Source: a phage. Taken from it: a stretch of 14,939 nucleotides of DNA. The notes below the pieces were generated by a model. The model ran no database searches. It saw only the letters and a list, made by a program, of their open reading frames with translations, and was not told the DNA's origin. The translations under genes and the position numbers were made by a program. The DNA lies in sequence record PX306536.1. The stretch is one strand, 5' to 3'. The stretch's first letter is position 1, and every line of letters starts with the position of its first letter. Positions 1 through 14,939 of the stretch are shown piece after piece.

Positions 1-110
1 GGGGATACGTGCCCCTCCCCACCTACCCGCGCCCCTAACATTTTTATTTCCGTCTGTCAATACCCCCTGCATCCGATAGGCCCGAACTATCACAAACGGA
101 AAAGCGATAG
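1..110. repeat. Left inverted terminal repeat (110 bp), genome terminus starting GGGG
   Basis: Positions 1-110 are the exact reverse complement of 14830-14939; the match breaks at position 111 versus 14829. C-rich tracts and repeated GATAG/CTATC motifs lie inside. Confidence 0.95.
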
Positions 111-143
111 CCCAAAACACTAAGCCCCTTTTCATCATTTCAT

Positions 144-173
144 TTGTAAGCGCGTTTAAAATCATGGTAAAAT
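144..173 (+). promoter_or_regulatory. Candidate sigma70-like early promoter for the left early operon (VIII-I)
   Basis: TTGTAA (144-149), 18-nt spacer, TAAAAT (168-173), about 60 nt upstream of the gene VIII ATG at 233. Sequence inspection only. Confidence 0.35.
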
Positions 174-232
174 AACCACTACCCCAAATTGCGCCCCTGC
201 AATTTGCTGACGGTTTAACGGAAGGCGGAAAC

Positions 233-1012
233 ATGGCGAAGAAAAAACCAGTAGAAAAAAATGGGCTTGTTTATAAAGAGTTTCAAAAGCAAGTTTCAAA
301 TTTGAAGAAAGCCGGACTAATCCCTAAAACCCTTGACGTGCGAAAAGTCAAGCCAACAAAACACTATAAAGGATTGGTAAGCAAATATAAAGACGTTGCA
401 ACAGGGGGCGCTAAACTTGCAGCAATTCCTAACCCCGCCGTTATTGAAACGCTTGAAGCGCGGGGCGAATCCATCATTAAGAAAGGCGGCAAGGCATATC
501 TGAAAGCCCGCCAGCAAATAAACCAGCGCGGACAAATTGTAAACCCCTTTACGGTTCGCGTAACCAAACGCGGCGAAGTGGTGCGCCGCTACCGTAAGAC
601 TACCCCGGAAGGCAAGCCCGTTTATATCACGCAACGGGAATTGCCTATTAAGTTTGAGAATATGGAACAGTGGCTTACTGAATTAAAGGCCGCTGGTTTT
701 CAATTGCAACCGGGCGAACAAATCTATTTCACTTTTAACGGTAACTATTCCCGCCGTACCTATACGTCATTTGATGAAGCGTTCAATAAATTCATGACGT
801 ATGACATTATTATTGATGCGGTGGCCGGAAAATTAAAAGTAGAAGATGAAGCCGATTTAGTTAAGTCGGTAGGCTTTCAGCGTATCAGCGGCCCCGAAGC
901 CAAGGCGTATAACCGTAACCGTATTGTATTGCCTGAAATGCAATTTAGCCAAGCGGCTAAAAAGAAATACAAGCGCCGTCAAAAACGCGGCTATGGCAGC
1001 AAGGGGGTTTAA
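233..1012 (+). CDS. VIII: Genome terminal protein P8 (protein primer for DNA replication), 259 aa
   Basis: First ORF inside the left ITR, 259 aa, basic and Lys-rich; Tyr at residue 190 (codon 800-802, context FMTYD) matches the priming tyrosine recalled for PRD1 P8. RBS AAGG upstream. Confidence 0.9.
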   Translation: MAKKKPVEKNGLVYKEFQKQVSNLKKAGLIPKTLDVRKVKPTKHYKGLVSKYKDVATGGAKLAAIPNPAVIETLEARGESIIKKGGKAYLKARQQINQRGQIVNPFTVRVTKRGEVVRRYRKTTPEGKPVYITQRELPIKFENMEQWLTELKAAGFQLQPGEQIYFTFNGNYSRRTYTSFDEAFNKFMTYDIIIDAVAGKLKVEDEADLVKSVGFQRISGPEAKAYNRNRIVLPEMQFSQAAKKKYKRRQKRGYGSKGV

Positions 1013-1015
1013 TAT

Positions 1016-2677
1016 ATGCCGCGCCGTTCCCGTAAAAAGGTTGAATATAAAATTGCAGCCTTTGACTTTGAAACTGACCCTTTCAAGCATGACCGTATCC
1101 CTAAACCGTTTTCATGGGGTTTTTATAATGGTGAAATTTATAAAGACTATTGGGGCGATGATTGCATAGAACAGTTTATTTACTGGCTGGATACCATAGA
1201 AGAACCCCACGTCATATACGCGCATAACGGCGGCAAGTTTGATTTTCTTTTTCTCATGAAATACTTTCGCGGGAAATTGAAAATAGTTAATGGGCGTATT
1301 TTGGAAGTCGAACACGGTATCCATAAATTCCGCGATAGTTATGCAATCCTACCGGTGCCACTTGCTGCCAGCGATGAAAAGATAGAAATTGATTATGGCA
1401 AGATGGAAAGGGAAACCCGCGAACAGCACAAGGCGGAAATTTTAGAATACCTTAAAGGCGATTGTGTCACCTTGCATAAAATGGTTAGTTTGTTTATTGC
1501 TGAATTTGGAATGCGCCTAACCATAGGCGGTACGGCAATGAATGAATTAAAACAGTTCCACCCTTATGACCCGGTGCGCAAAGGCTTTGATGAAGCTATG
1601 CGCCCCTTTTATTTTGGTGGAAGGTGCCAAGCATTCGAGAAAGGAATAATAGAAGATGATATTAAAGTTTATGACGTTAATAGCATGTACCCCCATGCTA
1701 TGCGAAATTTCCGCCACCCTTTCAGCGATGAATTTTATGAAGCCGATGAAGTAACGGAAGAAACTTATTTTATTGAATGGGAAGGCGAGAATAACGGCGC
1801 GGTGCCAGTAAGGACTAAAACAGGATTAGACTTTAATCAGCGTAGCGGCATTTTCCATACGTCAATCCATGAATGGCAGGCGGGCATTGATACCGGCACG
1901 ATTAAACCTAATCGGATTATAAGGACAATCAATTTTACTGAAACAACCACTTTCGGCGCATTCATTGACCATTTCTTTAGCAAGCGTGACGCGGCCAAAA
2001 AGGCGGGCGATTTATTCCACAATATTTTTTACAAACTTATTTTAAATAGCAGTTATGGGAAGTTTGCGCAAAACCCCGAAAATTATAAAGAGTGGTGCAT
2101 AACGGAAGGCGGCATTTATTTAGAAGGCTATGACGGCGAAGGGTGCGAAGTACAGGAACATTTAGATTATATTTTATGGGGTAGGCCCGCTGAAATGTTT
2201 AATTATTTTAACGTGGCAGTGGCGGCAAGTATTACAGGCGCGGCCCGTTCCGTTTTATTGCGGGCATTGGCGCAAGCGGAAAGGCCGCTTTATTGTGACA
2301 CTGATTCTATTATTTGCCGTGATTTAAAAAATGTCCCGCTTGACGCATACCAGCTAGGCGCGTGGGATTTGGAAGCAACCGGCGATAAAATAGCGATTGC
2401 CGGTAAAAAATTATATGCGCTTTACGCTGGTGATAATTGCGTTAAAATTGCAAGTAAGGGGGCTAGTCTGGTTCCGCGTGATATTGGGTTTTTAATGCCC
2501 CCGGATATGGAACCGAAAGCCGCCAAAAAGGTAGCGCAACAAAAGGCTAAAAATATTGGTGGCGAGAAAATTTTAAAGGTGGCTAATGGCGGCGTGTATG
2601 ATTTTGTAAATGATGCCCCGTCATTTAAGCTAAATGGCAACGTGCAATTTATCAAGCGCACAATCAAAGGAACATAA
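1016..2677 (+). CDS. I: Protein-primed family B DNA polymerase P1, 553 aa
   Basis: Exo I FDFETD, Exo II YAHNGGKFDFLF, Exo III YLKGDCV; polymerase motif A DVNSMYPHAM, motif B KLILNSSYGKFAQ, motif C YCDTDS (2291-2308). RBS AAGGGGG at 1001-1007. Confidence 0.95.
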   Translation: MPRRSRKKVEYKIAAFDFETDPFKHDRIPKPFSWGFYNGEIYKDYWGDDCIEQFIYWLDTIEEPHVIYAHNGGKFDFLFLMKYFRGKLKIVNGRILEVEHGIHKFRDSYAILPVPLAASDEKIEIDYGKMERETREQHKAEILEYLKGDCVTLHKMVSLFIAEFGMRLTIGGTAMNELKQFHPYDPVRKGFDEAMRPFYFGGRCQAFEKGIIEDDIKVYDVNSMYPHAMRNFRHPFSDEFYEADEVTEETYFIEWEGENNGAVPVRTKTGLDFNQRSGIFHTSIHEWQAGIDTGTIKPNRIIRTINFTETTTFGAFIDHFFSKRDAAKKAGDLFHNIFYKLILNSSYGKFAQNPENYKEWCITEGGIYLEGYDGEGCEVQEHLDYILWGRPAEMFNYFNVAVAASITGAARSVLLRALAQAERPLYCDTDSIICRDLKNVPLDAYQLGAWDLEATGDKIAIAGKKLYALYAGDNCVKIASKGASLVPRDIGFLMPPDMEPKAAKKVAQQKAKNIGGEKILKVANGGVYDFVNDAPSFKLNGNVQFIKRTIKGT

Positions 2678-2678
2678 A

Positions 2679-3128
2679 ATGCAATATACACTTTGGGATA
2701 TTATCAGCCGCGTGGAAAGCAACGGGAATTTAAAAGCGTTGCGGTTTGAACCGGAATACTATCAGCGGCGCATGGCGCGGGGCGATTGGAATAATTCGAT
2801 TATTCAAAATATCCGCGCCGCCAATAAATGCAGCTTAGGCACTGCCCGCATGATTTATTGCAGTTCATGGGGCGCGGTTCAAATCATGGGATTTAATCTT
2901 TATTTGGACGGCGCATTTAATTTGAGCGTTGCGCATTTCATGGAAAATGAAGCGTATCAAGTAAATGAATTTCGGCGCTTCCTTTTGAAAAATGGATTAA
3001 CTGAATATACGCCTGAAAGGCTGGCGAGTGATAAAGCGGCCCGCGTTAAATTCGCCAAGGTTTATAACGGCGCTGAAAGTTACGCGGATTTAATTTTGCA
3101 AGCCTGCCAATTTTACGGGGTGAAATAA
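2679..3128 (+). CDS. XV: Soluble lytic enzyme P15 (muramidase-type endolysin), 149 aa
   Basis: ATG at 2679 preceded by RBS AAAGGA (2666-2671), immediately after the polymerase stop. The ORF track's upstream extension to 2634 overlaps the polymerase and lacks an RBS. Size matches PRD1 P15. Confidence 0.8.
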
Positions 3129-4903
3129 TGGCTAATTTCAACGTGCCTAAATTGGGCGTTTTTCCGGTTGCTGCCGTTTTCGATATTGACAACGTGCCGG
3201 AAGATTCCAGCGCAACGGGTAGCCGCTGGCTACCTTCAATTTATCAGGGCGGTAATTATTGGGGCGGTGGCCCGCAAGCGTTGCGCGTTCAGGTAAGCAA
3301 TTTTGATGCTACTAACCGCCTGCCCTATAACCCGCGCACTGAAAATAACCCGGCTGGAAATTGCGCTTTTGCGTTTAATCCTTTCGGTCAATATATTTCT
3401 AATATCAGTAGTGCGCAAAGTGTGCATAGGCGCATTTACGGAATCGACCTAAATGATGAACCGCTTTTCACGCCTAACGCTGCAAGCATTACAAACGGCG
3501 GCAATCCTACAATGTCGCAAGATTATGCTTATCACAATATCGGCCCGATTAATTCCGCGTATAAGGCCGAAATTTTCCGGCCTGTAAATCCGTTGCCAAT
3601 GAGTGATACAGCGCCTGACCCTGAAACATTGGAACCGGGGCAAACGGAACCGCTTATTAAATCCGATGGTATTTATTCAAATAGCGGTATTGCGTCATTT
3701 ATTTTTGATAGGCCCGTAACGGAACCTAACCCAAATTGGCCCCCGCTGCCCCCGCCTGTAATTCCAATTATTTACCCTACCCCCGCGCTAGGCATTGGCG
3801 CGGCGGCGGCGTATGGCTTTGGCTATCAAGTGACGGTTTATAGATGGGAAGAAATACCCGTTGAATTTATCGCTGACCCTGAAACCTGCCCCGCGCAACC
3901 GACAACGGATAAGGTAATAATCAGGACAACCGATTTAAACCCGGAAGGTTCGCCGTGCGCTTATGAAGCCGGAATTATTTTAGTTCGCCAAACGTCTAAC
4001 CCAATGAATGCGGTAGCGGGGCGGCTGGTTCCTTATGTTGAAGATATAGCGGTTGATATTTTCCTGACAGGGAAATTTTTCACGCTTAACCCGCCTTTGC
4101 GAATTACCAATAATTATTTTGCGGATGATGAAGTAAAAGAAAACACTGTCACCATAGGCAATTACACTACCACGCTTTCAAGCGCCTATTATGCAATGTT
4201 TAAAACTGACGGCTACGGCGGGGCCACTTGCTTTATAGCGTCTGGTGGTGCTGGTATTTCCGCGCTTGTTCAATTGCAAGATAATAGCGTTTTGGACGTG
4301 CTTTATTATTCGCTGCCGCTTTCATTGGGTGGAAGCAAAGCGGCAATTGATGAATGGGTGGCGAATAATTGCGGGCTTTTTCCTATGTCCGGTGGGCTGG
4401 ATAAAACCACGCTGCTAGAAATTCCGCGCCGTCAATTGGAAGCTATAACCCCGCAAGATGGGCCGGGGCAGGATGATTTATTTATTCTGGATGATTCCGG
4501 CGCGTATGCTAGTTTTTCATCCTTTATCGGTTTTCCTGAATCCGCCTATTATGTTGCAGGCGCTGCCACTTTTATGGACGTTGAAAACCCGGATGAAATT
4601 ATTTTTATCTTGCGAAATGGCGCGGGCTGGTATGCTTGCGAAATTGGCGATGCGTTAAAAATTGCGGATGATGAATTTGATTCCGTGGATTATTTCGCGT
4701 ATCGCGGGGGCGTTATGTTTATTGGTTCGGCGCGTTATACCGAAGGGGGCGACCCGCTACCCATTAAATATAGGGCGATTATTCCAGCGTTGCCGCGTGG
4801 GCGTTTGCCGCGTGTAGTGTTAGAATATCAAGCGGTGGGAATGTCGTTTATTCCTTGTCAAACGCATTGCCTTGGCAAAGGCGGAATTATTTCAAAGGTG
4901 TAA
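3128..4903 (+). CDS. II: Receptor-binding (adsorption) protein P2, 591 aa
   Basis: 591-aa ORF, start overlaps the XV stop (TAATG); position and size match PRD1 P2. Confidence 0.85.
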
Positions 4904-4906
4904 ATT

Positions 4907-5287
4907 ATGAATGTGAATAATCCCAATCAAATGACGGTAACGCCTGTTTATAACGGTTGCGATTCCGGCGAAGGCCCGCAAAGTGTGCGCGGTTACTTTG
5001 ACGCGGTAGCGGGCGAGAATATCAAGTTTGATATGACTTATCTTGCCGATACGCAAGGCTTTACCGGCGTTCAATGTATCTATATTGATAACGCGGAAAA
5101 TGACGGCGCGTTTGAAATTGACGTTGAAGAAACGGGCCAGCGGATTAAATGCCCTGCCGGTAAGCAAGGCTATTTTCCTTTGCTGGTTCCGGGCCGTGCT
5201 AAATTTGTGGCGCGTCATTTGGGCAGCGGCAAAAAATCGGTGCCTTTGTTTTTCCTTAACTTCACTATTGCGCAAGGGGTTTGGTAA
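4907..5287 (+). CDS. XXXI: Penton (vertex base) protein P31, 126 aa
   Basis: 126 aa, RBS AAAGGTG upstream; paralogous to the N-terminal domain of the next ORF (TGQRIxxxAGxQGYxP...F[LI]NFxIAxGVW). Confidence 0.85.
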   Translation: MNVNNPNQMTVTPVYNGCDSGEGPQSVRGYFDAVAGENIKFDMTYLADTQGFTGVQCIYIDNAENDGAFEIDVEETGQRIKCPAGKQGYFPLLVPGRAKFVARHLGSGKKSVPLFFLNFTIAQGVW

Positions 5288-6309
5288 TGGCTAATCAACA
5301 AATTGGCGGTAGCACGGTAACTTATAACGGCGCTATCCCTATGGGTGGCCCGGTGGCAATTAATACCGTTATTGAAATTGCAGGCACGGAAGTTTTAGTT
5401 GATTTAAAACTTGACTATGCAACCGGCAAAATTTCGGGCGTTCAAACTCTTTATATCGACTTGCGCGATTTTTTGGGTGACGTAACCGTGACCATGCCGG
5501 ACACCGGGCAGCGCATTACGGCGCGGGCAGGTACGCAAGGTTATTACCCGGTGCTATCCACTAACCTTATGAAATTCATTGTATCCGCCACTATTGACGG
5601 AAAATTCCCAATGAATTTTATTAACTTCCCTATTGCGCTTGGCGTATGGCCTAGCGGAATTAAAGGCGATAAAGGCGACCCCGGCGCACCCGGCCCCGCT
5701 GGTGGTACGGTTGTTGTTGAAGATTCCGGCGCGTCATCTGGTGAAAGCCTGCTAGACACTACCAGCGAACCGGGCAAAATTCTGGTTAAACGAATTTCGG
5801 CGGGCAGCGGAATTACCGTTACTGATTATGGCGATGAAGTGGAAATTGAAGCCAGCGGCGGCGGTGGTGGCGGTGGCGGTGTAACTGATGCGCTTTCATT
5901 AATGTATTCGACCAGTACGGGCGGGCCTGCAAGTATTGCGGCCAATGCGCTTACTGATTTTGATTTGTCCGGGGCGCTGACTGTAAATAGCGTGGGAACT
6001 GGTTTGACAAAATCAGCCGCTGGCATTCAATTAGCGGCGGGTAAATCCGGGCTTTATCAAATTACCATGACGGTAAAAAATAATACCGTGACAGCGGGAA
6101 ATTATTTATTGCGCGTTAAATACGGTAGTAGTGAATTTGTAGCGGCCTGCCCCGCCAGTAGCCTGACCGCTGGCGGTACAATTTCACTACTGATTTATTG
6201 CAACGTGTTAGGCGTTCCAAGCCTTGACGTGCTAAAATTCAGTTTGTGTAATAGCGGGGCGGCGCTTAGTAATTACATTATTAATATCACTGCCGCGAAA
6301 ATTAATTAA
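5287..6309 (+). CDS. V: Vertex spike protein P5, 340 aa, with P31-like N-domain, collagen-like Gly-X-Y stretch and Gly8 hinge
   Basis: ATG at 5287 overlaps the XXXI stop (TAATG); the track's 5281 start is a TTG. N-domain similar to P31; GIKGDKGDPGAPGPAGG at 5656-5706; Gly8 at 5857-5880. Confidence 0.88.
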   Translation: MANQQIGGSTVTYNGAIPMGGPVAINTVIEIAGTEVLVDLKLDYATGKISGVQTLYIDLRDFLGDVTVTMPDTGQRITARAGTQGYYPVLSTNLMKFIVSATIDGKFPMNFINFPIALGVWPSGIKGDKGDPGAPGPAGGTVVVEDSGASSGESLLDTTSEPGKILVKRISAGSGITVTDYGDEVEIEASGGGGGGGGVTDALSLMYSTSTGGPASIAANALTDFDLSGALTVNSVGTGLTKSAAGIQLAAGKSGLYQITMTVKNNTVTAGNYLLRVKYGSSEFVAACPASSLTAGGTISLLIYCNVLGVPSLDVLKFSLCNSGAALSNYIINITAAKIN

Positions 6310-6327
6310 CCTGAAAGGTGACTGAAA

Positions 6328-6588
6328 ATGATGGGAAAAGGTTTTGAAATGATGGTTGCCAGCGCAATCCGTGCCGCTGGTATTAATCCTGATGAATTGA
6401 TGGAAAAGGCTAATACCCTTGTCCATAATTTGAATTACCAGCTTGACCGATTCGGCCAGCGGCTGGATTCCATTGATTCGCGCCTTTCGGTAATTGAAAA
6501 GGCGCTTGATATTTCCCCGGCAGAAAAGCCGGACAATCAGCCCGAATTAACGGGTATTACTTTTGAAGGTGACGCCAATGACCAATGA
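6328..6588 (+). CDS. XVII: Assembly protein P17, 86 aa
   Basis: 86-aa ORF with RBS GAAAGGTGA upstream; size and position match PRD1 P17. Confidence 0.75.
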   Translation: MMGKGFEMMVASAIRAAGINPDELMEKANTLVHNLNYQLDRFGQRLDSIDSRLSVIEKALDISPAEKPDNQPELTGITFEGDANDQ

Positions 6589-6784
6589 AGAAAAATTGAT
6601 TGCTGAAATTGATAGCGCGGGCCTTTCGGCTGAAATGCTGGAATCCATGCCAAGCCCTGAAATGTTCCCGCTTATTATTGTCAATCTGCAAGGGCGTATT
6701 GCCGAACTGGAAGCGCGGGAAACTGAAATGCTGGCCCGCGTTGATACGCTGATTGCCCGCCTTGCGCATTTGGGGGTAGCCTAA
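6578..6784 (+). CDS. XXXIII: Assembly protein P33, 68 aa
   Basis: ATG at 6578 preceded by GAAGGTGA; the track's 6563 start is a TTG. Overlaps the XVII 3' end by 11 nt; coiled-coil-like sequence. Confidence 0.7.
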   Translation: MTNEEKLIAEIDSAGLSAEMLESMPSPEMFPLIIVNLQGRIAELEARETEMLARVDTLIARLAHLGVA

Positions 6785-7284
6785 TGGATACCGAAGAAAT
6801 TAAAGAGGAAATGCAGGAAGCCGCCGAAGCCGCCATAGAAAACGCGGTTGAAACTGCCGAACTGGAAACAGCCGCTATTAAAGCGGAAGGGGCGGCGGCA
6901 GCGGCGGAACAATCGGCAGAACAAGCGGCGGTAATGGCCGCGACCCTTGCCGCAAGTGTTGAAGCAAACGCCGCGCAACAAATCGCGGAACATTCGGAAC
7001 AGGTACAAACACAAGAGGAAAAAATATCATGGCTGGAAAATCAAGTAATGGCGATGGCGTCAAATTTGCAGATGATGCAGGAAGCGGTAACAGCATTGAC
7101 GGTATCGCAATCATTGACCCCGGAACCGTCACCAGCGCCAGCGGTGGAAGTGGAAGCGATGCCGGAAGCGGTGACAGTGGAAATACTCCCCGAAAGCGCG
7201 GGCGACCAGCCGGAAGCGGAACCGGCGCAAAGCGTGGGCGACCAGCCGGAAACAGCGCCGCGAAAAAGGTTCCGGGCAATCTAG
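6784..7284 (+). CDS. VI: Minor capsid / DNA packaging protein P6, 166 aa, acidic and Ala/Glu-rich
   Basis: 166-aa ORF, start overlaps the XXXIII stop (TAATG); strongly acidic low-complexity N-terminal half. Confidence 0.8.
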   Translation: MDTEEIKEEMQEAAEAAIENAVETAELETAAIKAEGAAAAAEQSAEQAAVMAATLAASVEANAAQQIAEHSEQVQTQEEKISWLENQVMAMASNLQMMQEAVTALTVSQSLTPEPSPAPAVEVEAMPEAVTVEILPESAGDQPEAEPAQSVGDQPETAPRKRFRAI

Positions 7285-7640
7285 GCGTTGAAAAAATCCT
7301 TTTCAGTTTGCACTTGATGGCGTCAAGCGCGTTGAAGGTTGAAGAACTGGCGCTTGATGAAAAGGAAGCCGAAGCCCTTGCCGGGGCAGTGCAGGAAGTG
7401 GCGAGCCATTACGATATTACCCCTGACCCTAAAATCATGGCATGGGCGGGATTGTTTGGCGTTTGCGCTTCTATTTATGGCCCCCGCGTTGCAGCTTATA
7501 AAATGCGGGCGGCGGCTGAAAAGCGCGATAAAAAGGAAGCGGCTAAACCGATGGCCCAAAAGGTACAGGAAGCCAAGCCAACGGAACATGACCCGGCAGC
7601 GCCTTACATTGAACAATTGCCAGTAAGTAACCTGCTATGA
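7029..7640 (+). CDS. X: Assembly (scaffolding-like) protein P10, 203 aa, overprinted on the 3' third of gene VI
   Basis: 203-aa ORF in a different frame from VI, overlapping it by 256 nt; contains two KRGRPAG AT-hook-like motifs. Confidence 0.8.
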   Translation: MAGKSSNGDGVKFADDAGSGNSIDGIAIIDPGTVTSASGGSGSDAGSGDSGNTPRKRGRPAGSGTGAKRGRPAGNSAAKKVPGNLGVEKILFSLHLMASSALKVEELALDEKEAEALAGAVQEVASHYDITPDPKIMAWAGLFGVCASIYGPRVAAYKMRAAAEKRDKKEAAKPMAQKVQEAKPTEHDPAAPYIEQLPVSNLL

Positions 7641-8320
7641 CAATACGAATGCCAAACGATAGACAACGTATTCTAGTGCTAGGCAAAACCGGCACCGGGA
7701 AAACTTGCGCCGCCGTTTGGCATTTATCCCAAAAGGATTTTAAGCGCAAGGCGTGGATTGTCCTAAACCATAAGGGCGATGATTTAATTGATTCCATTGA
7801 AGGGGCTAACCATGTAGATTTAAATTTTCGACCTAAAAAACCGGGGCTTTATATTTACCATCCTATCCCTGATGTTGATGATGCGGAAGTAACGCAATTG
7901 CTTTGGGATATTCACGCGATGGGCGATATTGGCGTTTATGTTGATGAAGGGTACATGATTCCAAACCGTGACCCGGCATTTCAGGCGCTACTTACTCAAG
8001 GCCGGAGTAAGAAAATCCCGATGATTATTTTAAGCCAGCGGCCCGTATGGCTTACCCGCTTTGCCATTTCGGAATCGGATTTTTTCCAGATATTCCAATT
8101 AGGCGACCAGCGCGATAGGCAAACCGTGCAAGGTTTTGTTCCGGTGGATTTGGAAAAATTAATGCAAGCGCCTGTAAATACAGTGCCAGCATTAAAAAAA
8201 TTCCATTCAATTTATTATGACGTGGGCGCTAATAATTGCGTTATAATGACACCGGTTCCTACCGCTGACGCCGTTTTGGCCCGGTTCGACCTTGGCAAGA
8301 AAAGAAAGCAAACCCTGTAA
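7637..8320 (+). CDS. IX: DNA packaging ATPase P9, 227 aa
   Basis: Walker A GKTGTGKT (7682-7705) and Walker B-like IGVYVDEG; ATGA overlap with the gene X stop. Confidence 0.92.
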   Translation: MTIRMPNDRQRILVLGKTGTGKTCAAVWHLSQKDFKRKAWIVLNHKGDDLIDSIEGANHVDLNFRPKKPGLYIYHPIPDVDDAEVTQLLWDIHAMGDIGVYVDEGYMIPNRDPAFQALLTQGRSKKIPMIILSQRPVWLTRFAISESDFFQIFQLGDQRDRQTVQGFVPVDLEKLMQAPVNTVPALKKFHSIYYDVGANNCVIMTPVPTADAVLARFDLGKKRKQTL

Positions 8321-8331
8321 AGGAAAACGCT

Positions 8332-8460
8332 ATGACTGAAAATATCATTAGTTGGAATGTCGCCAATTGGGTGACAGTAATTTTAATGGCGCTTGCCGGT
8401 TATGCGGTGCTGGCTTTAGCTGCCAAGGTAATTAACAACCGCGCACAGGAACCGGCATAA
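8332..8460 (+). CDS. XX: Small single-pass membrane protein, 42 aa, P20-like (packaging vertex)
   Basis: ATG at 8332 with RBS AAGGA; one hydrophobic helix (NWVTVILMALAGYAVLALAA); size matches PRD1 P20. Confidence 0.65.
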   Translation: MTENIISWNVANWVTVILMALAGYAVLALAAKVINNRAQEPA

Positions 8461-8588
8461 TGGTTAATTGGGAATTGTTGAAAAACCCCATTAATTGGCT
8501 TATCGTCATTCTCATGCTGACCATTGCAGGAATGGCGGCTACCCTTGTTTGTAACCACTTCGGCAAAAATGCCGTCACTTCGGAGTAA
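8460..8588 (+). CDS. Small single-pass membrane protein, 42 aa, tandem paralog of the preceding ORF (could correspond to P22 or an unnamed ORF)
   Basis: TAATG overlap with the preceding ORF; shares the NW-x-x-VILM transmembrane pattern with it. Confidence 0.55.
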   Translation: MVNWELLKNPINWLIVILMLTIAGMAATLVCNHFGKNAVTSE

Positions 8589-8594
8589 TTAAAT

Positions 8595-9782
8595 ATGGCA
8601 CAGGTTCAACAACTGACCCCCGCTCAACAGGCGGCATTGCGCAATCAGCAGGCTATGGCGGCAAACTTGCAGGCCCGTCAAATTGTCCTGCAACAGTCTT
8701 ACCCTGTTATCCAGCAGGTTGAAACGCAAACTTTCGACCCGGCTAACCGTTCCGTGTTTGACGTGACCCCGGCGAACGTGGGCATTGTCAAAGGCTTTTT
8801 GGTGAAGGTAACGGCGGCTATCAAAAATAACCACGCTACCGAAGCGGTGGCCCTTACTGACTTCGGCCCGGCTAACCTTGTTCAACGTGTCATTTATTAT
8901 GACCCGGACAACCAGCGCCACACTGAAACCAGCGGCTGGCATTTGCATTTTGTGAATACCGCCAAACAAGGTGCGCCGTTCCTTTCCAGCATGGTAACGG
9001 ATTCGCCCATTAAGTACGGCGATGTTATGAACGTCATTGATGCCCCGGCAACTATTGCGGCGGGCGCTACTGGCGAACTGACCATGTACTATTGGGTTCC
9101 GCTTGCCTATTCCGAAACCGATTTGACCGGGGCGGTTTTGGCGAACGTGCCGCAAAGTAAGCAGCGCCTGAAACTGGAATTTGCGAACAACAATACCGCC
9201 TTTGCGGCGGTGGGCGCTAATCCGCTGGAAGCGATTTATCAGGGCGCGGGCGCGGCTGATTGCGAGTTTGAAGAAATTTCTTACACCGTTTATCAGTCTT
9301 ACCTTGACCAACTGCCGGTAGGCCAGAACGGTTATATCCTGCCGCTGATTGACCTTTCCACTTTGTACAATCTGGAAAACAGCGCACAGGCAGGGCTTAC
9401 CCCTAACGTGGATTTTGTGGTGCAGTATGCAAACCTGTATCGCTACCTTTCCACAATCGCGGTATTCGATAACGGCGGCAGCTTCAATGCTGGCACCGAT
9501 ATTAACTACCTTAGCCAGCGCACGGCTAACTTTTCGGATACCCGGAAACTTGACCCGAAAACGTGGGCCGCGCAAACTCGCCGCCGTATCGCTACCGATT
9601 TTCCGAAGGGCGTTTATTATTGCGACAACCGCGATAAGCCGATTTACACCCTTCAATATGGTAACGTGGGCTTTGTCGTGAATCCTAAAACGGTCAATCA
9701 AAATGCCCGTTTGCTGATGGGTTACGAATACTTCACCAGCCGCACCGAACTGGTGAATGCTGGCACCATTTCCACCACTTAA
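8595..9782 (+). CDS. III: Major capsid protein P3 (double jelly-roll), 395 aa
   Basis: 395-aa ORF beginning MAQVQQLTPAQQAAL, which matches my recollection of the PRD1 P3 N-terminus; correct size and position. Confidence 0.95.
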   Translation: MAQVQQLTPAQQAALRNQQAMAANLQARQIVLQQSYPVIQQVETQTFDPANRSVFDVTPANVGIVKGFLVKVTAAIKNNHATEAVALTDFGPANLVQRVIYYDPDNQRHTETSGWHLHFVNTAKQGAPFLSSMVTDSPIKYGDVMNVIDAPATIAAGATGELTMYYWVPLAYSETDLTGAVLANVPQSKQRLKLEFANNNTAFAAVGANPLEAIYQGAGAADCEFEEISYTVYQSYLDQLPVGQNGYILPLIDLSTLYNLENSAQAGLTPNVDFVVQYANLYRYLSTIAVFDNGGSFNAGTDINYLSQRTANFSDTRKLDPKTWAAQTRRRIATDFPKGVYYCDNRDKPIYTLQYGNVGFVVNPKTVNQNARLLMGYEYFTSRTELVNAGTISTT

Positions 9783-9800
9783 TAAAGGGGGCATTCCGCC

Positions 9801-9944
9801 ATGCAGCTAATCACTGATATGGCGGAATGGTCTAAAAAGCCATTCCGCCCTGATATGTCGCTAACCGGCTGGCTTGCGTTTGTGGGCCTAATCATTGTTG
9901 CCATTATCCTTTGGCAGCAAATTATCCGTTTCATTATCGAATAA
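9801..9944 (+). CDS. Small membrane protein, 47 aa (size matches PRD1 P22; assignment uncertain)
   Basis: ATG at 9801 after GGGGG; one transmembrane helix; start codon sits in the left arm of an 11-bp inverted repeat, with an in-frame Met7 at 9819. Confidence 0.5.
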   Translation: MQLITDMAEWSKKPFRPDMSLTGWLAFVGLIIVAIILWQQIIRFIIE

Positions 9945-9954
9945 GGAAACTACC

Positions 9955-10038
9955 ATGAAAATTTTCGGCATTTCTGTTTTCACAATCGCCCTTATTGCCT
10001 TGGCTTACTACCTTGGCACTAAGCGCATTATCGGGTAA
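9955..10038 (+). CDS. Small hydrophobic protein, 27 aa (unnamed ORF)
   Basis: ATG at 9955 with RBS AAGGA (9943-9947); the translation is essentially one transmembrane helix. Confidence 0.4.
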   Translation: MKIFGISVFTIALIALAYYLGTKRIIG

Positions 10039-10043
10039 CGATT

Positions 10044-10166
10044 ATGCGCGGCAATTTGGCGCTTGCCATGATTCTATTTGGCTTTGTCGTGTATGCCGCA
10101 AATAGCGGCGCTTTCGGGCGCTTGCTTTATGTAATCGGGTTCCGCGATAAACCGGAGGGATATTAA
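10044..10166 (+). CDS. Small membrane protein, 40 aa (unnamed ORF)
   Basis: ATG at 10044 with a weak RBS; hydrophobic core ILFGFVVYAA; fills the gap before XVIII exactly. Confidence 0.35.
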   Translation: MRGNLALAMILFGFVVYAANSGAFGRLLYVIGFRDKPEGY

Positions 10167-10167
10167 T

Positions 10168-10440
10168 ATGCCCTTCGGTTTAATCGTTATTGGAATCATC
10201 CTTGCAATAGCCGCTTACCGCGATACGCTTGGCGAATTGTTTAGCATCATTAAGGACGTTTCAAAAGATGCTAAGGGGTTTGGCTATTGGGTATTGGCGG
10301 CGGTTATTTTGGGATTCGCGGCAAGTATCAAGCCAATAAAAGAGCCGGTTAATGCGTTTATGATTTTGCTGATGATTGTTCTACTAATCCGCAAGCGTGG
10401 CGCTATTGACCAAATTTCTAACCAACTAAGGGGCAGCTAA
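10168..10440 (+). CDS. XVIII: Membrane DNA-delivery protein P18, 90 aa
   Basis: Strong RBS GGAGGGA (10153-10159); two hydrophobic segments; size matches PRD1 P18. Confidence 0.75.
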   Translation: MPFGLIVIGIILAIAAYRDTLGELFSIIKDVSKDAKGFGYWVLAAVILGFAASIKPIKEPVNAFMILLMIVLLIRKRGAIDQISNQLRGS

Positions 10441-10604
10441 TGGGCGAGTTTGGCAAAACCCTAATAACGATTGTGACGGCTATTATTGGCGTTGCAATTA
10501 TTGCCGTTATCGTGTCACAGCGAAGTAATACGGCTGGCGTGATTCAATCCGCCACAAGCGGATTTTCCAATATCCTTAAATCGGCGCTTGCGCCTATCAT
10601 TTAA
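10440..10604 (+). CDS. XXXII: Membrane DNA-delivery protein P32, 54 aa
   Basis: TAATG overlap with XVIII, RBS AAGGGG; transmembrane helix followed by NTAGVI motif; paralog of the next ORF. Confidence 0.7.
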   Translation: MGEFGKTLITIVTAIIGVAIIAVIVSQRSNTAGVIQSATSGFSNILKSALAPII

Positions 10605-10616
10605 AAGGTGAATGAC

Positions 10617-10823
10617 ATGAATGATTTTGTTGGCCCTATCGTTACCGTTTTGACCGCTATTATCGGCGTGGCAATTCTTGCCGTGCTGGTTAGCCGCAAC
10701 AGTAATACCGCTGGCGTTATCAAGGCCGGTTCCGGTGGCTTTTCCAGTATGCTAGGCACGGCGCTTTCGCCTGTTACTGGTGGCACTGGTTTTGCCATGA
10801 CCAATAATTACAGCGGTTTTTAA
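10617..10823 (+). CDS. XXXIV: Membrane protein P34, 68 aa, paralog of P32
   Basis: ATG at 10617 with RBS AAAGGTGA; the track's 10608 start is a GTG. Shares TAIIGVAI-x-AV-x-VS-x-SNTAGVI with P32. Confidence 0.7.
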   Translation: MNDFVGPIVTVLTAIIGVAILAVLVSRNSNTAGVIKAGSGGFSSMLGTALSPVTGGTGFAMTNNYSGF

Positions 10824-10832
10824 GGGGGTAAC

Positions 10833-11087
10833 ATGGCACTGATTAATCCGCAATTTCCATACGCGGGGCCGGTGCCGATTCCCGGCCCTGCCCCTACCGA
10901 AACCATGCCGCTTTTGAATTACCGGGTAGAAGGCCGCATTGCTGGTATTCAGCAGGCGCGGCAGTTTATGCCGTTCCTGCAAGGGCCGCACCGGGCGGTA
11001 GCCGAACAAACCTATCACGCGATTGGTACAGGTATTCAAATGGGGCAAACATTCAATCAGCCCTTGATTAACACTCAAGAGGGCTAA
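10833..11087 (+). CDS. XXX: Minor capsid protein P30 (capsid-stabilising / tape-measure-like), 84 aa
   Basis: 84-aa Pro-rich extended protein with RBS AAGGGGG upstream; size matches PRD1 P30. Confidence 0.75.
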   Translation: MALINPQFPYAGPVPIPGPAPTETMPLLNYRVEGRIAGIQQARQFMPFLQGPHRAVAEQTYHAIGTGIQMGQTFNQPLINTQEG

Positions 11088-11089
11088 GG

Positions 11090-11200
11090 ATGAAAACCGC
11101 CATTTTTATATTGGCTGTAATGTTTGCGGCTTTGCTTTGGCTAGGCCGCGAGCATTGCATTTTGTGCCAATGGTTCAAACGCATTTCAAACGGGGCTTAA
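11090..11200 (+). CDS. Small membrane protein, 36 aa (unnamed ORF)
   Basis: ATG at 11090 following GAGGG; transmembrane helix FILAVMFAALLWL; exactly fills the XXX-XI gap. Confidence 0.4.
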   Translation: MKTAIFILAVMFAALLWLGREHCILCQWFKRISNGA

Positions 11201-11201
11201 T

Positions 11202-11825
11202 ATGGAAAAGGTAAAAGCATGGCTCATTAAATATAAGTGGTGGATTGTGGCGGCTATTGGTGGCCTTGCCGCATTTCTGCTACTTAAAAACCGTGGCGGT
11301 GGTGGCGGCGGCGGCGGTGAATATATGGTAGGAAGCGGGCCGGTTTATCAGCAGGCCGGAAGCGGCGCGGTGGATAACACTATGGCGCTTGCTGCCCTGC
11401 AAGCCAATACGCAACTATCCGCACAGAATGCACAATTGCAGGCGCAAATGGACGCCAGCCGTTTGCAGCTTGAAACCCAATTGAACATTGAAACGCTTGC
11501 CGCTGATAACGCGCATTACAGCACGCAAAGCCAATTGCAGCTTGGCATGGCGCAAGTGGATTTGTCTAAATACCTTGGCGACCTGCAAAGCACCACTAGC
11601 ACGGCGCTTGCTGGTATGCAATCCGATACCGCCAAGTATCAAAGCAATATCCAATTGCAGGCCGAAAATATCCGCGCTAATACTTCACTTGCTGAAATTG
11701 ACGCGCAAAAATACATTGTCGGCAAACAAGCCGATATTGCCAAGTATCAAGCGAAAACAGAACGGCGCGGGCAGGACTACGGTTTTGCTTTGGGCTTGCT
11801 GAATTTCGGCGGCAAATTCTTTTAA
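11202..11825 (+). CDS. XI: DNA-delivery protein P11, 207 aa, with N-terminal membrane anchor, Gly8 linker and Gln-rich domain
   Basis: 207-aa ORF; Gly8 at 11295-11318; Q/A-rich repetitive body; size matches PRD1 P11. Confidence 0.85.
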   Translation: MEKVKAWLIKYKWWIVAAIGGLAAFLLLKNRGGGGGGGGEYMVGSGPVYQQAGSGAVDNTMALAALQANTQLSAQNAQLQAQMDASRLQLETQLNIETLAADNAHYSTQSQLQLGMAQVDLSKYLGDLQSTTSTALAGMQSDTAKYQSNIQLQAENIRANTSLAEIDAQKYIVGKQADIAKYQAKTERRGQDYGFALGLLNFGGKFF

Positions 11826-11835
11826 GGGGTAAATC

Positions 11836-12189
11836 ATGGACAAAAAGAAATTGCTTTATTGGGTGGGCGGCGGGCTGGTGCTGATTCTTATCTGGCTTTG
11901 GTTCCGCAATCGACCAGCCGCGCAAGTGGCAAGCAATTGGGAAGGCCCGCCGTATATGACGTATAACCAGCCGCAAGCCGGTAGCGTCACCCTGCCGGTG
12001 GCTGGCTATACTTCGCCTTCCCTGACACTGCCGAACCGCAACCGTTCATGCGGTTGTAACCCGGCAGTATCGGCAGCAATGGCACAGGGCGCGGATTTGG
12101 CAAGTAAATTGACTGAAAGCATTTCCAGCCAGCTTAATAACTATGCCGAAAGTCTTAATGATTATTTGGCTTCACAAGCGGGGGTTTAA
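11836..12189 (+). CDS. XVI: Vertex-membrane linker / infectivity protein P16, 117 aa
   Basis: RBS AAGGGG; N-terminal transmembrane helix; size matches PRD1 P16. Confidence 0.75.
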   Translation: MDKKKLLYWVGGGLVLILIWLWFRNRPAAQVASNWEGPPYMTYNQPQAGSVTLPVAGYTSPSLTLPNRNRSCGCNPAVSAAMAQGADLASKLTESISSQLNNYAESLNDYLASQAGV

Positions 12190-12999
12190 ATGGCTGGTGC
12201 GCTGCAATGGTGGGAAACTATCGGCGCGGCTTCGGCGCAATATAACCTTGACCCGCGCCTAGTGGCCGGGGTTGTCCAAACGGAATCATCCGGCAACCCC
12301 CGCGCCATTTCAGGCGCGGGCGCTATGGGTTTAATGCAGCTTATGCCAGCGACCGCCAAAAGTTTAGGCGTAACAAACGCCTATGACCCTACACAAAACA
12401 TTTATGGTGGCGCGGCCCTTTTGCGTGAAAACCTTGATAGATACGGCGATGTTAATACGGCGTTGCTTGCTTATCACGGCGGAACTAATCAAGCAAATTG
12501 GGGCGCTAAAACAAAATCTTATCCGGGTAAGGTTATGGAAAATATCAATTTGCTTTTCGGTAATAGCGGCCCGGTAGTAACGCCAGCGGCAGGAATTGCG
12601 CCAGTATCCGGGGCGCAAGAAATGACCGCCGTTAATATCAGCGACTATACCGCGCCTGATTTAACGGGGCTTACTATGGGGGCGGGTAGTCCTGAATTTA
12701 CAGGCGGGGCTAGTGGTTCATGGGGCGAAGAAACGCCAGAAGAAAACGTGCCGTGGTATCGCGTAGATAAGCACGTTGCGAACGCGGCGGGTTCCGCTTA
12801 TGACGCGGTGGCAGGGGCAGTAAGCGCACCAGTGGAAGCGGCAGGAAACTACGCCTTGCGGGGCGTGGTAATTATTGCGGCGGTGGCAATTGTTGTTGTT
12901 GGTTTGTACTTCCTTTTTCAAGATGAAATTAACAGCGCCGCCATGAAGATGATTCCAGCCGGTAAGGCGGCAGGGGCAGCGGCTAAGGCAATGTCATGA
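12190..12999 (+). CDS. VII: Virion lytic transglycosylase P7 (SLT domain) with C-terminal membrane anchor, 269 aa; C-terminal portion may also be made as P14
   Basis: SLT catalytic signature VVQTESSGNPRAISGAGAMGLMQLMPATA; C-terminal transmembrane helix VVIIAAVAIVVVGLYFLF. Confidence 0.9.
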   Translation: MAGALQWWETIGAASAQYNLDPRLVAGVVQTESSGNPRAISGAGAMGLMQLMPATAKSLGVTNAYDPTQNIYGGAALLRENLDRYGDVNTALLAYHGGTNQANWGAKTKSYPGKVMENINLLFGNSGPVVTPAAGIAPVSGAQEMTAVNISDYTAPDLTGLTMGAGSPEFTGGASGSWGEETPEENVPWYRVDKHVANAAGSAYDAVAGAVSAPVEAAGNYALRGVVIIAAVAIVVVGLYFLFQDEINSAAMKMIPAGKAAGAAAKAMS

Positions 13000-13349
13000 T
13001 GGGAAATGATGAATGGTGGAAGTATCTAATTTTTCCGCTAGTGGCTACGCTTGGCGGAATTGTCAATTACTCAAAAAGGGCGCTTGCCATGAAACGCTTT
13101 TCTAAACTTGAATTTGCGGTTGAAGCGGTAAGCGCCGCGTTTGTGGGCTTGATGGTAACGCTAGGCGGGGCGGCTATGGATTTATCGCCGCACTGGCTAG
13201 GCATGGCGGCGGGAATGTCTGGATGGATGGGCGCGGATTTTGTCAAGGCGGTTTTCTCGCAATTTGTGCAAAGCAAGATTGGCCCTATCAATCAGCCGGG
13301 GCCGATAGATTCCGACAATGACAAGCCGGGGCGAACCTTCAATGATTAA
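12996..13349 (+). CDS. XXXV: Holin P35, 117 aa
   Basis: Multiple hydrophobic helices with a charged C-terminus, located directly upstream of a spanin pair; ATGTCATGATG overlap with the VII stop. Confidence 0.8.
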   Translation: MMGNDEWWKYLIFPLVATLGGIVNYSKRALAMKRFSKLEFAVEAVSAAFVGLMVTLGGAAMDLSPHWLGMAAGMSGWMGADFVKAVFSQFVQSKIGPINQPGPIDSDNDKPGRTFND

Positions 13350-13704
13350 ATGGGTTTTGTCTAACCTGAAAAGCGTGGCCGCTATTGCGGTTGCGCTTTT
13401 AATGCTTGCTAACTTTGGTTATTCAATTTTAGCGGCTAAAAAAATAACGGGGCTTCAAAATGAAATTAAAGCCATTGAAGAAAAGGCGACCGCAAACGCC
13501 AAAGCGGTGGAAGCCCTTCAATCAGTACGCGCAAGCGATGCGAAAGCAATCGCGGCAATTCAGGAAGGCCAGACAATTATCAGCGGCAAACTTAGCCGAA
13601 CAATTAGCGGATTGGGAAGGGTAAGCGATGAAACTAAACAAATTCTTGATAGTCCTATGCCTGCCGATGTTCGCGGCTTGTTCAACAACAGCCCCGAAAA
13701 TTGA
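13318..13704 (+). CDS. XXXVI: Rz-like inner-membrane spanin P36 (alternative start ATG 13342)
   Basis: N-terminal transmembrane helix followed by a coiled-coil-like periplasmic domain; overlaps the holin 3' end. Confidence 0.7.
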
Positions 13705-13900
13705 AACCGTTTATCTGGTTCCGCCGCCAAGCCTGCTAACTGAATGCGCCGCGCCTGTTTATCCGTTTATAACGTGGCGGGATTTGGTGGAAGCATACGC
13801 AAAAGAAAAGGCCGCAAGGGAATCATGCGGCCTTCAAATTCAAGAAATAAAAAACTGGTTTAAAGAAACAGTTCCAAGCGAAAGCCGAAAGTTTCAGTAA
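13628..13900 (+). CDS. XXXVII: Rz1-like outer-membrane lipoprotein spanin P37, 90 aa, overlapping the XXXVI 3' end in another frame
   Basis: Signal peptide with lipobox-like FAAC then Pro-rich VPPPS; own RBS GGGAAGGG (13612-13619). Confidence 0.7.
13801..13834 (-). terminator. Intrinsic terminator for the leftward early transcript, embedded in the XXXVII coding sequence
   Basis: 9-bp GC-rich stem AAGGCCGCA/TGCGGCCTT (13808-13816 and 13826-13834) with a 9-nt loop, followed on the minus strand by UUCUUUUG; lies 26 nt beyond the gene XIX stop. Confidence 0.55.
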
Positions 13901-14144
13901 TCAGCTTGCCAAGCCATTCAGCTTGCGTAACGCCAGCGGGCGTAAAACCGTTATCGGCAAACCGCAAATCAAAATGTTCGCTTACCACGCGGATAGCGCC
14001 CTTGACTTGATAAACAGCGGCAAGCGCGGTGCTGCCATACATAAGCGATGAAGCAAAAGGCGTTTGTCCAAAGTCGCCGGGAATGGACACAAAATAAAAT
14101 GCCTTCGGGCATTCAGGGCGGTTATTTTCGGTTTGCTTTTCCAT
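13860..14144 (-). CDS. XIX: ssDNA-binding protein P19, 94 aa
   Basis: Minus-strand ORF with RBS AAAGGTAAC upstream; second gene of the right early operon; 3' end overlaps XXXVII convergently. Confidence 0.75.
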
Positions 14145-14177
14145 GTTTGTTACCTTTGAATTTGAAGGGTAAAGAAT

Positions 14178-14204
14178 GGCCCCGCGCTGGTATCAGCCGG
14201 GGCC
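14178..14204 (-). other. GC-rich stem-loop in the XII-XIX intergenic region (possible attenuator or RNA stability element)
   Basis: GGCCCCG...CGGGGCC with extra inner pairing, roughly 11 bp with one bulge and a 4-nt loop; followed on the minus strand by AUUCUUUA. Confidence 0.4.
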
Positions 14205-14216
14205 GTGGCGCGTTGA

Positions 14217-14699
14217 TTAGGCTTCGGCCTTGGCCTTGGCCTTGGCGGCGGGCTTGGCTTCGCCAGCGGCTTCACCGGCAGCGGCAGGGGCAGGCAGCGC
14301 GGCCTTAACCTGATTGCGAAGCGCGGCCAGTTCATCCGATGCGGCGGGTTCAATCAGCGGCTTGACACCGTATTCATAACCAGTGTTGCCCTTTTCGGAA
14401 GGCTTGGCCCAAATTTCAACCGCAAAATCAACCGTGTTTTCACCATCCACGGCACCGGCAAGCAGGCTTTCCAGTACCTTCGGCAGAATCAGCGCACCGG
14501 AACGGAACACTTCACCAGTGGCGATATTCACGCCTTCAAATTCACCTTCAAACTTGATGAAGTCGCCAAAGGTGGATTGACCAACTTTCTTACCGCGAAC
14601 GCGGCCATAGATGGAAGCCAGCGCGGTATTTTCCTTGATGCTGTGCGGCTTCGGTTGTGCGCCAATGGTTTTCAGAGTCAGCTTGCTTACGATTTCCAT
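14217..14699 (-). CDS. XII: ssDNA-binding protein P12, 160 aa, with Ala/Lys-rich C-terminal tail
   Basis: 160-aa minus-strand ORF, first gene inside the right ITR; RBS AAAGGTAAC; tail AAKAKAKAEA encoded by a GGCCTT x3 repeat. Confidence 0.88.
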   Translation of the reverse strand: MEIVSKLTLKTIGAQPKPHSIKENTALASIYGRVRGKKVGQSTFGDFIKFEGEFEGVNIATGEVFRSGALILPKVLESLLAGAVDGENTVDFAVEIWAKPSEKGNTGYEYGVKPLIEPAASDELAALRNQVKAALPAPAAAGEAAGEAKPAAKAKAKAEA

Positions 14700-14768
14700 G
14701 ATAGTTACCTTTAAAGTTAAGTGGAAGTTATCGGCGGGGGTTTTGTGTTTGCCCTTTCGATGATTGAA

Positions 14769-14796
14769 ATTATACGCGCATTTTTAGGACGTGCAA
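14769..14796 (-). promoter_or_regulatory. Sigma70-like early promoter for the right early operon (XII-XIX)
   Basis: On the minus strand: TTGCAC (14791-14796), 16-nt spacer, consensus TATAAT (14769-14774), AT-rich upstream; about 70 nt upstream of the XII ATG. Confidence 0.6.
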
Positions 14797-14829
14797 TAGT
14801 TATGACGAAAATAAATCAAAATTTTATTC

Positions 14830-14939
14830 CTATCGCTTTTCCGTTTGTGATAGTTCGGGCCTATCGGATGCAGGGGGTATTGACAGACGGAAATAAAAAT
14901 GTTAGGGGCGCGGGTAGGTGGGGAGGGGCACGTATCCCC
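14830..14939. repeat. Right inverted terminal repeat (110 bp), genome terminus ending CCCC
   Basis: Exact reverse complement of positions 1-110. Confidence 0.95.

Follow-up and report, generated by a model that had tools for sequence, protein, structure and literature searches.

We analysed a 14,939-nucleotide (nt) stretch of phage DNA, sequence record PX306536.1, read as one strand from 5' to 3'; its whole length, positions 1–14939, is referred to below as the window. An inverted terminal repeat (ITR) that serves as a replication origin lies at each edge, the left one at 1..110 (plus strand) and the right one at 14830..14939 (minus strand). Between them we found all 31 coding sequences (CDS) annotated in phage PRD1, each with an ATG start and without internal stops, in the PRD1 order and on the PRD1 strands. 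The genes for P8 and P1 read inward from the left end on the plus strand and those for P12 and P19 read inward from the right end on the minus strand, while the interior block (2679–13900) holds 27 CDS, all on the plus strand, with a largest intergenic gap of no more than 18 nt. Both the inward-facing end genes and the compact one-directional late block had been described in an initial annotation made from the letters alone, and both descriptions held. We read the architecture, the set of genes and the identity to PRD1 directly from the sequence of the window, which is almost certainly the complete genome of a strain within the species Alphatectivirus PRD1, a lytic, conjugative-plasmid-dependent tectivirus with linear double-stranded DNA.

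Positions 1–110 were the exact reverse complement of 14830–14939 (110 nt, 100%). The repeat ended abruptly, base 111 being C and the complement of base 14829 being G, so that the perfect 110-bp ITRs stopping at 111/14829 in the initial annotation could be confirmed base by base. No residual similarity was detected beyond the repeat when 111–232 was compared with the reverse complement of 14700–14829 (local score 18 against 15.3 ± 2.3 in shuffles). The chance expectation for a perfect 110-mer inverted repeat is of the order of 1e-58, and since the second-longest inverted repeat in the window was merely 33 nt at 76%, the ITR is not a product of chance. It was base-for-base identical to the ITR of PRD1, and the PRD1 record M22161 annotates 1–110 as the 5' ITR. 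The window edges, taken in the initial annotation to be the genome ends, fall on the deposited termini of PRD1, PR5 and CSP1, first and last nucleotide alike. The window begins with 5'-GGGG and ends with CCCC-3', which places a 3'-CCCC reiteration on the template strand at both ends, as in a sliding-back origin. Tectiviridae have linear double-stranded DNA genomes of about 15 kb with ITRs at the ends, a form with which the 14,939 nt of the window, flanked precisely by perfect 110-nt ITRs, agree, and the point at which the ITR stops, together with the lack of any longer contig (below), suggests a linear topology.

Among strains with complete ends, positions 1–18 of the ITR were invariant, 19–47 were the most variable and 76–110 were conserved; the classic ITR comparison of Savilahti and Bamford reportedly agrees with this pattern. 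A 1-nt indel at ITR position 31 yields 110- and 111-nt ITRs among strains. The deposited records of L17 and PR3 showed 90 nt and 91 nt of perfect terminal complementarity, respectively. The PRDemerald record (PP412831) has a left end of the PRD1 type and a truncated right end of the PR772 type; such unlike ends are unexpected for a replicon with homogenised ITRs and are possibly an assembly artefact.

The replication genes at the left end were nearly those of PRD1. Gene VIII (233..1012, plus strand) encodes the terminal protein P8, the replication primer, with 259 amino acids (aa) and no aa difference from PRD1 P8; its residue 190 is a tyrosine, which we take to be the priming residue. It adjoins gene I (1016..2677, plus strand), whose product P1 is a family-B DNA polymerase of the protein-primed type and differs from PRD1 P1 in 3 of 553 aa. 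P1 matched the Pfam model DNA_pol_B_2 (PF03175) with E = 2e-80 and contains motifs A, B and C as DVNSMYP, KLILNSSYG and YCDTDS. A terminal protein gene next to a DNA_pol_B_2 polymerase gene is the replication module by which Tectiviridae are recognised. The double jelly-roll capsid of the family was found in gene III (8595..9782, plus strand): its product, the major capsid protein P3, a double jelly-roll trimer, matched the Pfam models Phage_Capsid_P3_N and P3_C and, over its full length, the solved P3 structures of PRD1/PR772 (6q5u, 1w8x and 1cjd; E ~1e-264). The family's packaging ATPase is represented by P9 (7637–8320, plus strand; 227 aa), which was identical to PRD1 P9 and kept, at residue 16, a Walker A motif (GKTGTGKT); P9 had no match to any Pfam model or PDB chain. 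The PRD1 membrane-protein genes P7, P11, P14, P16, P18, P20, P22, P32 and P34 were likewise present and intact, and by analogy with PRD1 an internal membrane is predicted.

Product lengths equalled those of PRD1 for 29 of the 31 genes, which exceeds the 17 loci at which the initial annotation had matched them. The two exceptions, P7 (269 against 265 aa) and P14 (154 against 150 aa), are longer than in PRD1 because 12 nt are deleted from the PRD1 genome at window position 12727. The 12 nt concerned (12727–12738) were lost in PRD1 alone among the compared genomes, and the window has the common long form. Codons differing from PRD1 numbered 302, of which 57 alter the amino acid (81% synonymous), and the genes are therefore functional and under purifying selection. 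All alphatectiviruses hold the 31 PRD1 genes in perfect synteny, without an accessory genome (PMC11015023); the window has these 31 genes with order and strands unchanged and, at a coding fraction of 95.6%, has no room for extra genes. Scans of the window for tRNA genes and Rfam families gave no match, as expected for this group.

We compared the whole window by megablast with 50,697 phage records. The 78 records that matched were all PRD1-group alphatectiviruses, and 75 of them covered at least 80% of the query. In a MAFFT alignment of the window and ten complete genomes, with identities computed without gap columns, the window was 97.9% identical to PKJ.Vi.20.1 and to CSP1, 97.6% to PRD1 and to PRDemerald, 97.4% to RH-42-1, 97.2% to PR772, 97.1% to PR5, 96.2% to L17 and to PR3, and 92.8% to PR4. 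Its identity to PRDpistachio was 85% and that to PRDwine 92%. Against the six classic genomes, PRD1, PR3, PR4, PR5, L17 and PR772, the window was collinear end to end, with at most 27 gap columns and identities of 92.8–97.6%. The initial annotation had called the window a PRD1-like tectivirus of a known type, an identification that hung on the existence of a collinear tectivirus of high identity; both the end-to-end collinearity and the presence of 31/31 genes bear it out. One refinement is that the window is a strain distinct from all six classic isolates and that its identity to the records searched does not go beyond about 98%. With the species cutoff set at 95% genome-wide nucleotide identity (the ICTV cutoff as cited in PMC11015023), the window belongs to Alphatectivirus PRD1 because its 97.6% identity to PRD1, over 100% of the length, lies above that value.

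PRD1 itself (AY848689 / NC_001421), the type member, is identical to the window in the ITR, in the first 288 nt and in the last 133 nt, and its P8, P9, P33, P20, P32, P34, P30, P18 and several small open reading frame (ORF) products are identical to those of the window. It differs by 356 substitutions and by one indel only, its own 12-nt deletion; the aa differences include 16 in P2 and 8 in the spike P5, while P6 and P16 have 5 apiece. The best full-length match was Burkholderia phage vB_Bco-CSP1 (CSP1; OQ674210), with 97.9% over 1–14939, a 110-nt ITR as well, and 99.6% over 7501–11000, where packaging, capsid and membrane genes lie. CSP1 differs at 8 ITR positions within 25–44, by a 3-nt insertion in the Gly-rich linker of P5 at 5854 and by 311 substitutions in total. 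Salmonella phage PKJ.Vi.20.1 (PP495480) matched with 98.2% over 76–14885 by megablast. Over P15 and the greater part of P2 it was 99.7% identical to the window, with 7 differences in 2 kb, and it had a single difference in 6001–6500, whereas it was 2–3% divergent in the polymerase, in the spike-to-assembly genes and at the right end; the ends of its record are incomplete or aberrant and have no ITR. PR5 (AY848687) has the same length of 14,939 nt, zero indels and identical gene coordinates. It differs by 428 substitutions (97.1% identity), which rule out that the window is PR5 despite the equal length; three of the ITR positions differ, as do 10 aa of P36 and 9 aa of P37. PR4 (AY848686), of the species Alphatectivirus PR4, has the same 31-gene architecture but a 111-nt ITR, 92.8% identity and a strongly divergent P2 region with a 15-nt insertion.

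The nearest relative of the window changed along the genome. It was PRDcochinilla and CSP1 at 111–2500 (98.0%), PKJ.Vi.20.1 at 2501–4500 (99.7%), PRDaubergine at 4501–7500 (97.7%), CSP1 at 7501–11000 (99.6%), PRDchartreuse at 11001–13500 (98.1%) and PRDmustard at 13501–14829 (99.0%). Informative sites in triplet comparisons were clustered, with 34–38 consecutive sites matching PKJ.Vi.20.1 over 2335–3823. They formed 94 runs against about 166 expected, and 0 of 5000 permutations reached the observed value (p < 2e-4). Only 43 positions of the window were private relative to the ten references. The same clustering was obtained with PRD1, PR5, PR772, L17, CSP1 or RH-42-1 as the query, and the mosaic signal appears to reflect homologous recombination across this population as a whole. 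Mosaic runs matching PKJ.Vi.20.1 (Sweden) or CSP1 (Australia) were seen at 2335–3823, 5976–7115, 7501–11000 and 11898–12124; the former phage is described as a Swedish wastewater isolate and the latter as an Australian Burkholderia isolate. From these comparisons the window may represent a previously unsequenced natural recombinant lineage that combines PRD1-type termini, a P15–P2 segment as in PKJ.Vi.20.1 and a capsid and packaging segment as in CSP1, a proposal for and against which we hold the balance to be even.

No record identical to the window was present in the phage collection, the best megablast match being about 98%. The exact P2, P5 and P7 proteins were not found in a collection of 15 billion proteins, and the exact P1 protein is common to several other strains, none of which is identical to the window. 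The terminal 40-mer was not found in IMG/VR. A 24-mer of the inner ITR was detected in one metagenome contig only (14,388 nt), itself cut off within the ITR. The 185,579 bacterial and archaeal genomes that represent species in GTDB did not contain it. Every contig that encodes an identical DNA polymerase was at most 14,946 nt long. The initial annotation had put forward a complete genome that does not continue past its ITRs, and no public contig or genome was seen to carry the ITR inside a longer molecule. The novelty of the window is at the strain level only, relative to the collections searched; the virus species and the architecture are already known. Metagenome-derived alphatectivirus contigs were limited to two, IMGVR_UViG_3300020613_000018 and Ga0172382_10008414, with 93.9% and 96.1% identity to the window, respectively. 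Both are truncated inside the ITR, and the former lies under the 95% species line with respect to the window.

Three other explanations of the window were weighed against that of a complete genome of an Alphatectivirus PRD1 strain. The long P7/P14 form is common to the window, PR4 and other non-PRD1 strains, and the genus has been expanded to as many as 12 proposed species (PMC11015023), so one might place the window in the sister species Alphatectivirus PR4 or in a newly proposed alphatectivirus species. We consider this extremely improbable: the full-length identity to PRD1 exceeds the cutoff and that to PR4 falls short of it, the P2 region is strongly divergent from that of PR4 (81–183 differences per 500 nt), and the identities to PRDpistachio and PRDwine are those given above. 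Bacillus is known to harbour linear plasmid prophages that are likewise protein-primed, bounded by ITRs and about 15 kb long (PMC8234876), and the window might instead be a tectivirus-like linear plasmid or prophage-type element, comparable to the temperate betatectiviruses Bam35 and GIL01, and not a lytic phage of the PRD1 type. This explanation is effectively refuted. All 78 DNA matches were alphatectiviruses of Gram-negative hosts, the gene set is exactly that of PRD1, without any additional gene for regulation or lysogeny, and 4.4% of the DNA is non-coding, and the ITR 24-mer occurred in none of the bacterial and archaeal genomes searched.

The third explanation concerns the record itself. 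The window could be a composite, a co-assembly or consensus of co-occurring alphatectiviruses onto which ITR ends were pasted from the PRD1 reference. Such an origin would fit the shifting nearest relative, with some segments no more than 98.1% identical to anything, as well as the clustered informative sites with the run at 2335–3823 and the small number of private positions. It would also fit the ends. The protein-capped ITR is usually missing when these phages are assembled from short reads (PMC11211187), and many records of the phage collection, most of its short-read assemblies among them, run from 111 to 14829 and hence have no ITR. The outermost 288 nt on the left (1–288) and 133 nt on the right (14807–14939) matched PRD1 base for base, against a difference of 2.4% in the interior and in spite of the variability of ITR positions 19–47 among strains; these ends may equally reflect shared ancestry or recombined ends, or completion from the PRD1 reference. 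On the other side, the mosaicism is not a sign of chimeric assembly, because long-established isolates show the same clustering: the plaque-purified isolates deposited in 2005 (PRD1, PR5, PR772 and L17), together with CSP1 and RH-42-1, give the same signal. All 31 ORFs of the window are intact, with no frameshifts, and CSP1, PR5 and PR4 have full, mutually different ITRs, so complete ends are obtainable. A composite is therefore very unlikely in our judgement, and we retain the reading of a complete genome of an Alphatectivirus PRD1 strain, which none of our observations contradicts.

The remaining genes of the window follow the PRD1 annotation. At the start of the interior block, gene XV (2679–3128, plus strand) encodes the muramidase P15 (Pfam Muramidase), intact and of PRD1 length, and gene II (3128–4903, plus strand) the receptor-binding protein P2, which has the PRD1 length of 591 residues, differs from its PRD1 counterpart in 16 of them and matched the Pfam model Prd1-P2 along its entire length (1298.7 bits). 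In the genus Alphatectivirus, P2 targets the conjugation apparatus encoded by IncP/N/W plasmids, and the P2 of the window may do the same; the plasmid dependence and the lytic lifestyle of the phage would be those of PRD1 by analogy. The penton protein P31 (gene XXXI, 4907–5287, plus strand; PRD1_P5_spike_N) and the spike P5 (gene V, 5287–6309, plus strand; Pfam PRD1_P5_spike_N and PRD1_P5_C) are both intact and of PRD1 length. P31 (4907–5287) and the N-terminal domain of P5 (5287–5650) matched the one Pfam family PRD1_P5_spike_N with E = 6.5e-73 and 1.7e-64, respectively; they are adjacent paralogous domains, a known feature of the PRD1 vertex. The assembly and packaging genes P17, P33, P6, P10, P9, gpi and P20 (6328..8588, plus strand) are all intact, and the P10 gene overlaps P6 out of frame. 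Downstream of P3 lie the membrane, DNA-delivery and minor-capsid genes P22, gpx, gpl, P18, P32, P34, P30, gpq, P11, P16, P7 and P14 (9801..12999, plus strand), also intact; the domains PRD1_DD, Tecti-min-caps and DUF1970 were found on orthologues of this group in relatives. Within it, the transglycosylase P7 (12190–12999, plus strand) has a Pfam SLT domain, and P14 (12535–12999, plus strand) is an intact in-frame internal product of the P7 gene.

GGC/GGT-rich direct repeats at 5851–5879 in P5 and at 11295–11317 in P11 encode poly-Gly linkers, including GGGGGGGG in P11, and a 3-nt length polymorphism occurs at 5854 in CSP1 and PR4. Short Q/A-rich internal repeats (..D[TI]AKYQ..) were seen in P11 at 11603–11757. 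The block closes with lysis genes, all intact, on the plus strand and named after the annotation of the PRDemerald orthologues: the holin gene P35 (12996–13349), the Rz-like spanin gene P36 (13342–13704) and the Rz1-like lipoprotein spanin gene P37 (13628–13900), which overlaps P36 and whose product has an N-terminal signal peptide ending in Cys. The right early operon on the minus strand encodes two proteins that bind single-stranded DNA (ssDNA), P12 (14217–14699; 160 aa, 2 aa differences from PRD1) and P19 (13860–14144; 94 aa, 1 aa difference), annotated in the PRD1 record M30146 as early proteins XII and XIX.

The left early promoter region occupies 111..232 (plus strand), which M22161 annotates as 'promoter region'. 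It contains a TG-extended sigma-70-like element, TTGTAA-18-TAAAAT, at 144–173, and the window equals PRD1 through base 288. The right early promoter, TTGCAC-16-TATAAT (14769..14796, minus strand), corresponds to the 'right early promoter' of M30146 at 145–172 nt from the right end and differs from PRD1 in a single spacer base at ~14778. Generic scans were otherwise not enriched over shuffled sequences, with 25 sigma-70 promoters against 21.8 ± 4.6 and 33 terminators against 24.7 ± 4.8, and the promoter scan recovered the left early site only. The 72-nt gap between P12 and P19 (14145–14216) is the sole sizeable internal non-coding stretch, and a terminator-like hairpin lies at 14114–14097 on the minus strand, just inside the P19 start.

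A 401-aa ORF with an ATG start was also observed on the minus strand (8589–9794), exactly antisense to the P3 gene and codon-aligned with it. What keeps the ORF open is the absence of TTA, CTA and TCA codons from P3, against about 11 expected from the rest of the genome (P ~5e-6). Of 13 alphatectivirus genomes examined, 12 had the frame open, one of them with no more than 90% identity, and in PR5 it was broken. Shuffling of synonymous codons is uninformative here, since a codon-aligned antisense frame is always open when these three codons are absent. P3 also has zero AGA, AGG, CGA, ATA, GGA and CCA codons, so rare, A-ending codons are generally avoided. In the comparison with PRDpistachio, 89 of 117 substitutions fell at the third codon position of the sense frame, and aa identity was 78% in the antisense frame against 95.7% in P3. 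On this substitution pattern and the codon avoidance of P3 we rejected a real overlapping gene; the antisense ORF arises as a side effect of the codon bias of P3, the gene with the highest expression.

Since the replication proteins and origins of the window are identical or nearly identical to those of PRD1, the mechanism established for PRD1 can be transferred to it, and the following steps are put forward by analogy. P8 would be covalently attached to each 5' end, as suggested by its identity to PRD1 P8 and by the 3'-CCCC template ends. The left early promoter would direct synthesis of P8 and P1, and the right early promoter that of P12 and P19. Replication would begin at either ITR, where P1 would join dGMP to Tyr190 of a free P8 with the fourth C of the 3'-CCCC end as template; three slide-backs would then recover the terminal bases before elongation proceeds by strand displacement. 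In PRD1 itself, initiation takes place at the fourth base of the 3'-CCCC reiteration and is followed by three slide-backs (PMC5175343). P12 would coat the displaced strands, and a displaced strand could pair its own complementary ends into a panhandle, which is possible because the two ITRs are identical and which would keep both ITRs the same; the roles of P12 and P19 and the panhandle model of the ITR have been described (PMC11886824). From the late block, P2 for receptor binding, the P5 spike and the P31 penton would form the vertex complex, P3 would build the shell over an internal membrane, P6, P9, P20 and P22 would provide the packaging machinery of the unique vertex, and membrane proteins would form the DNA-delivery tube, as reported for such phages (PMC6356626). 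The muramidase P15, the holin P35 and the Rz/Rz1-like spanin pair P36/P37 would make up the lysis cassette.

Phages of the PRD1 type serve as a textbook model of viruses that contain a membrane, of the double jelly-roll capsid lineage and of protein-primed replication. They are of practical interest for killing bacteria with IncP/N/W resistance plasmids and for orthogonal replication systems (PMC6356626, PMC11015023, bioRxiv 10.64898/2026.09.28.754915). The window adds one complete genome to Alphatectivirus PRD1 and brings no new mechanism, gene or architecture. Its complete ITR-to-ITR ends are somewhat useful, most recent assemblies being without ends. Its mosaic pattern of relatedness is in line with recombination still under way in the group and, if the window does represent a recombinant lineage, it would be one more data point for worldwide gene flow by homologous recombination in a group long called unusually uniform.

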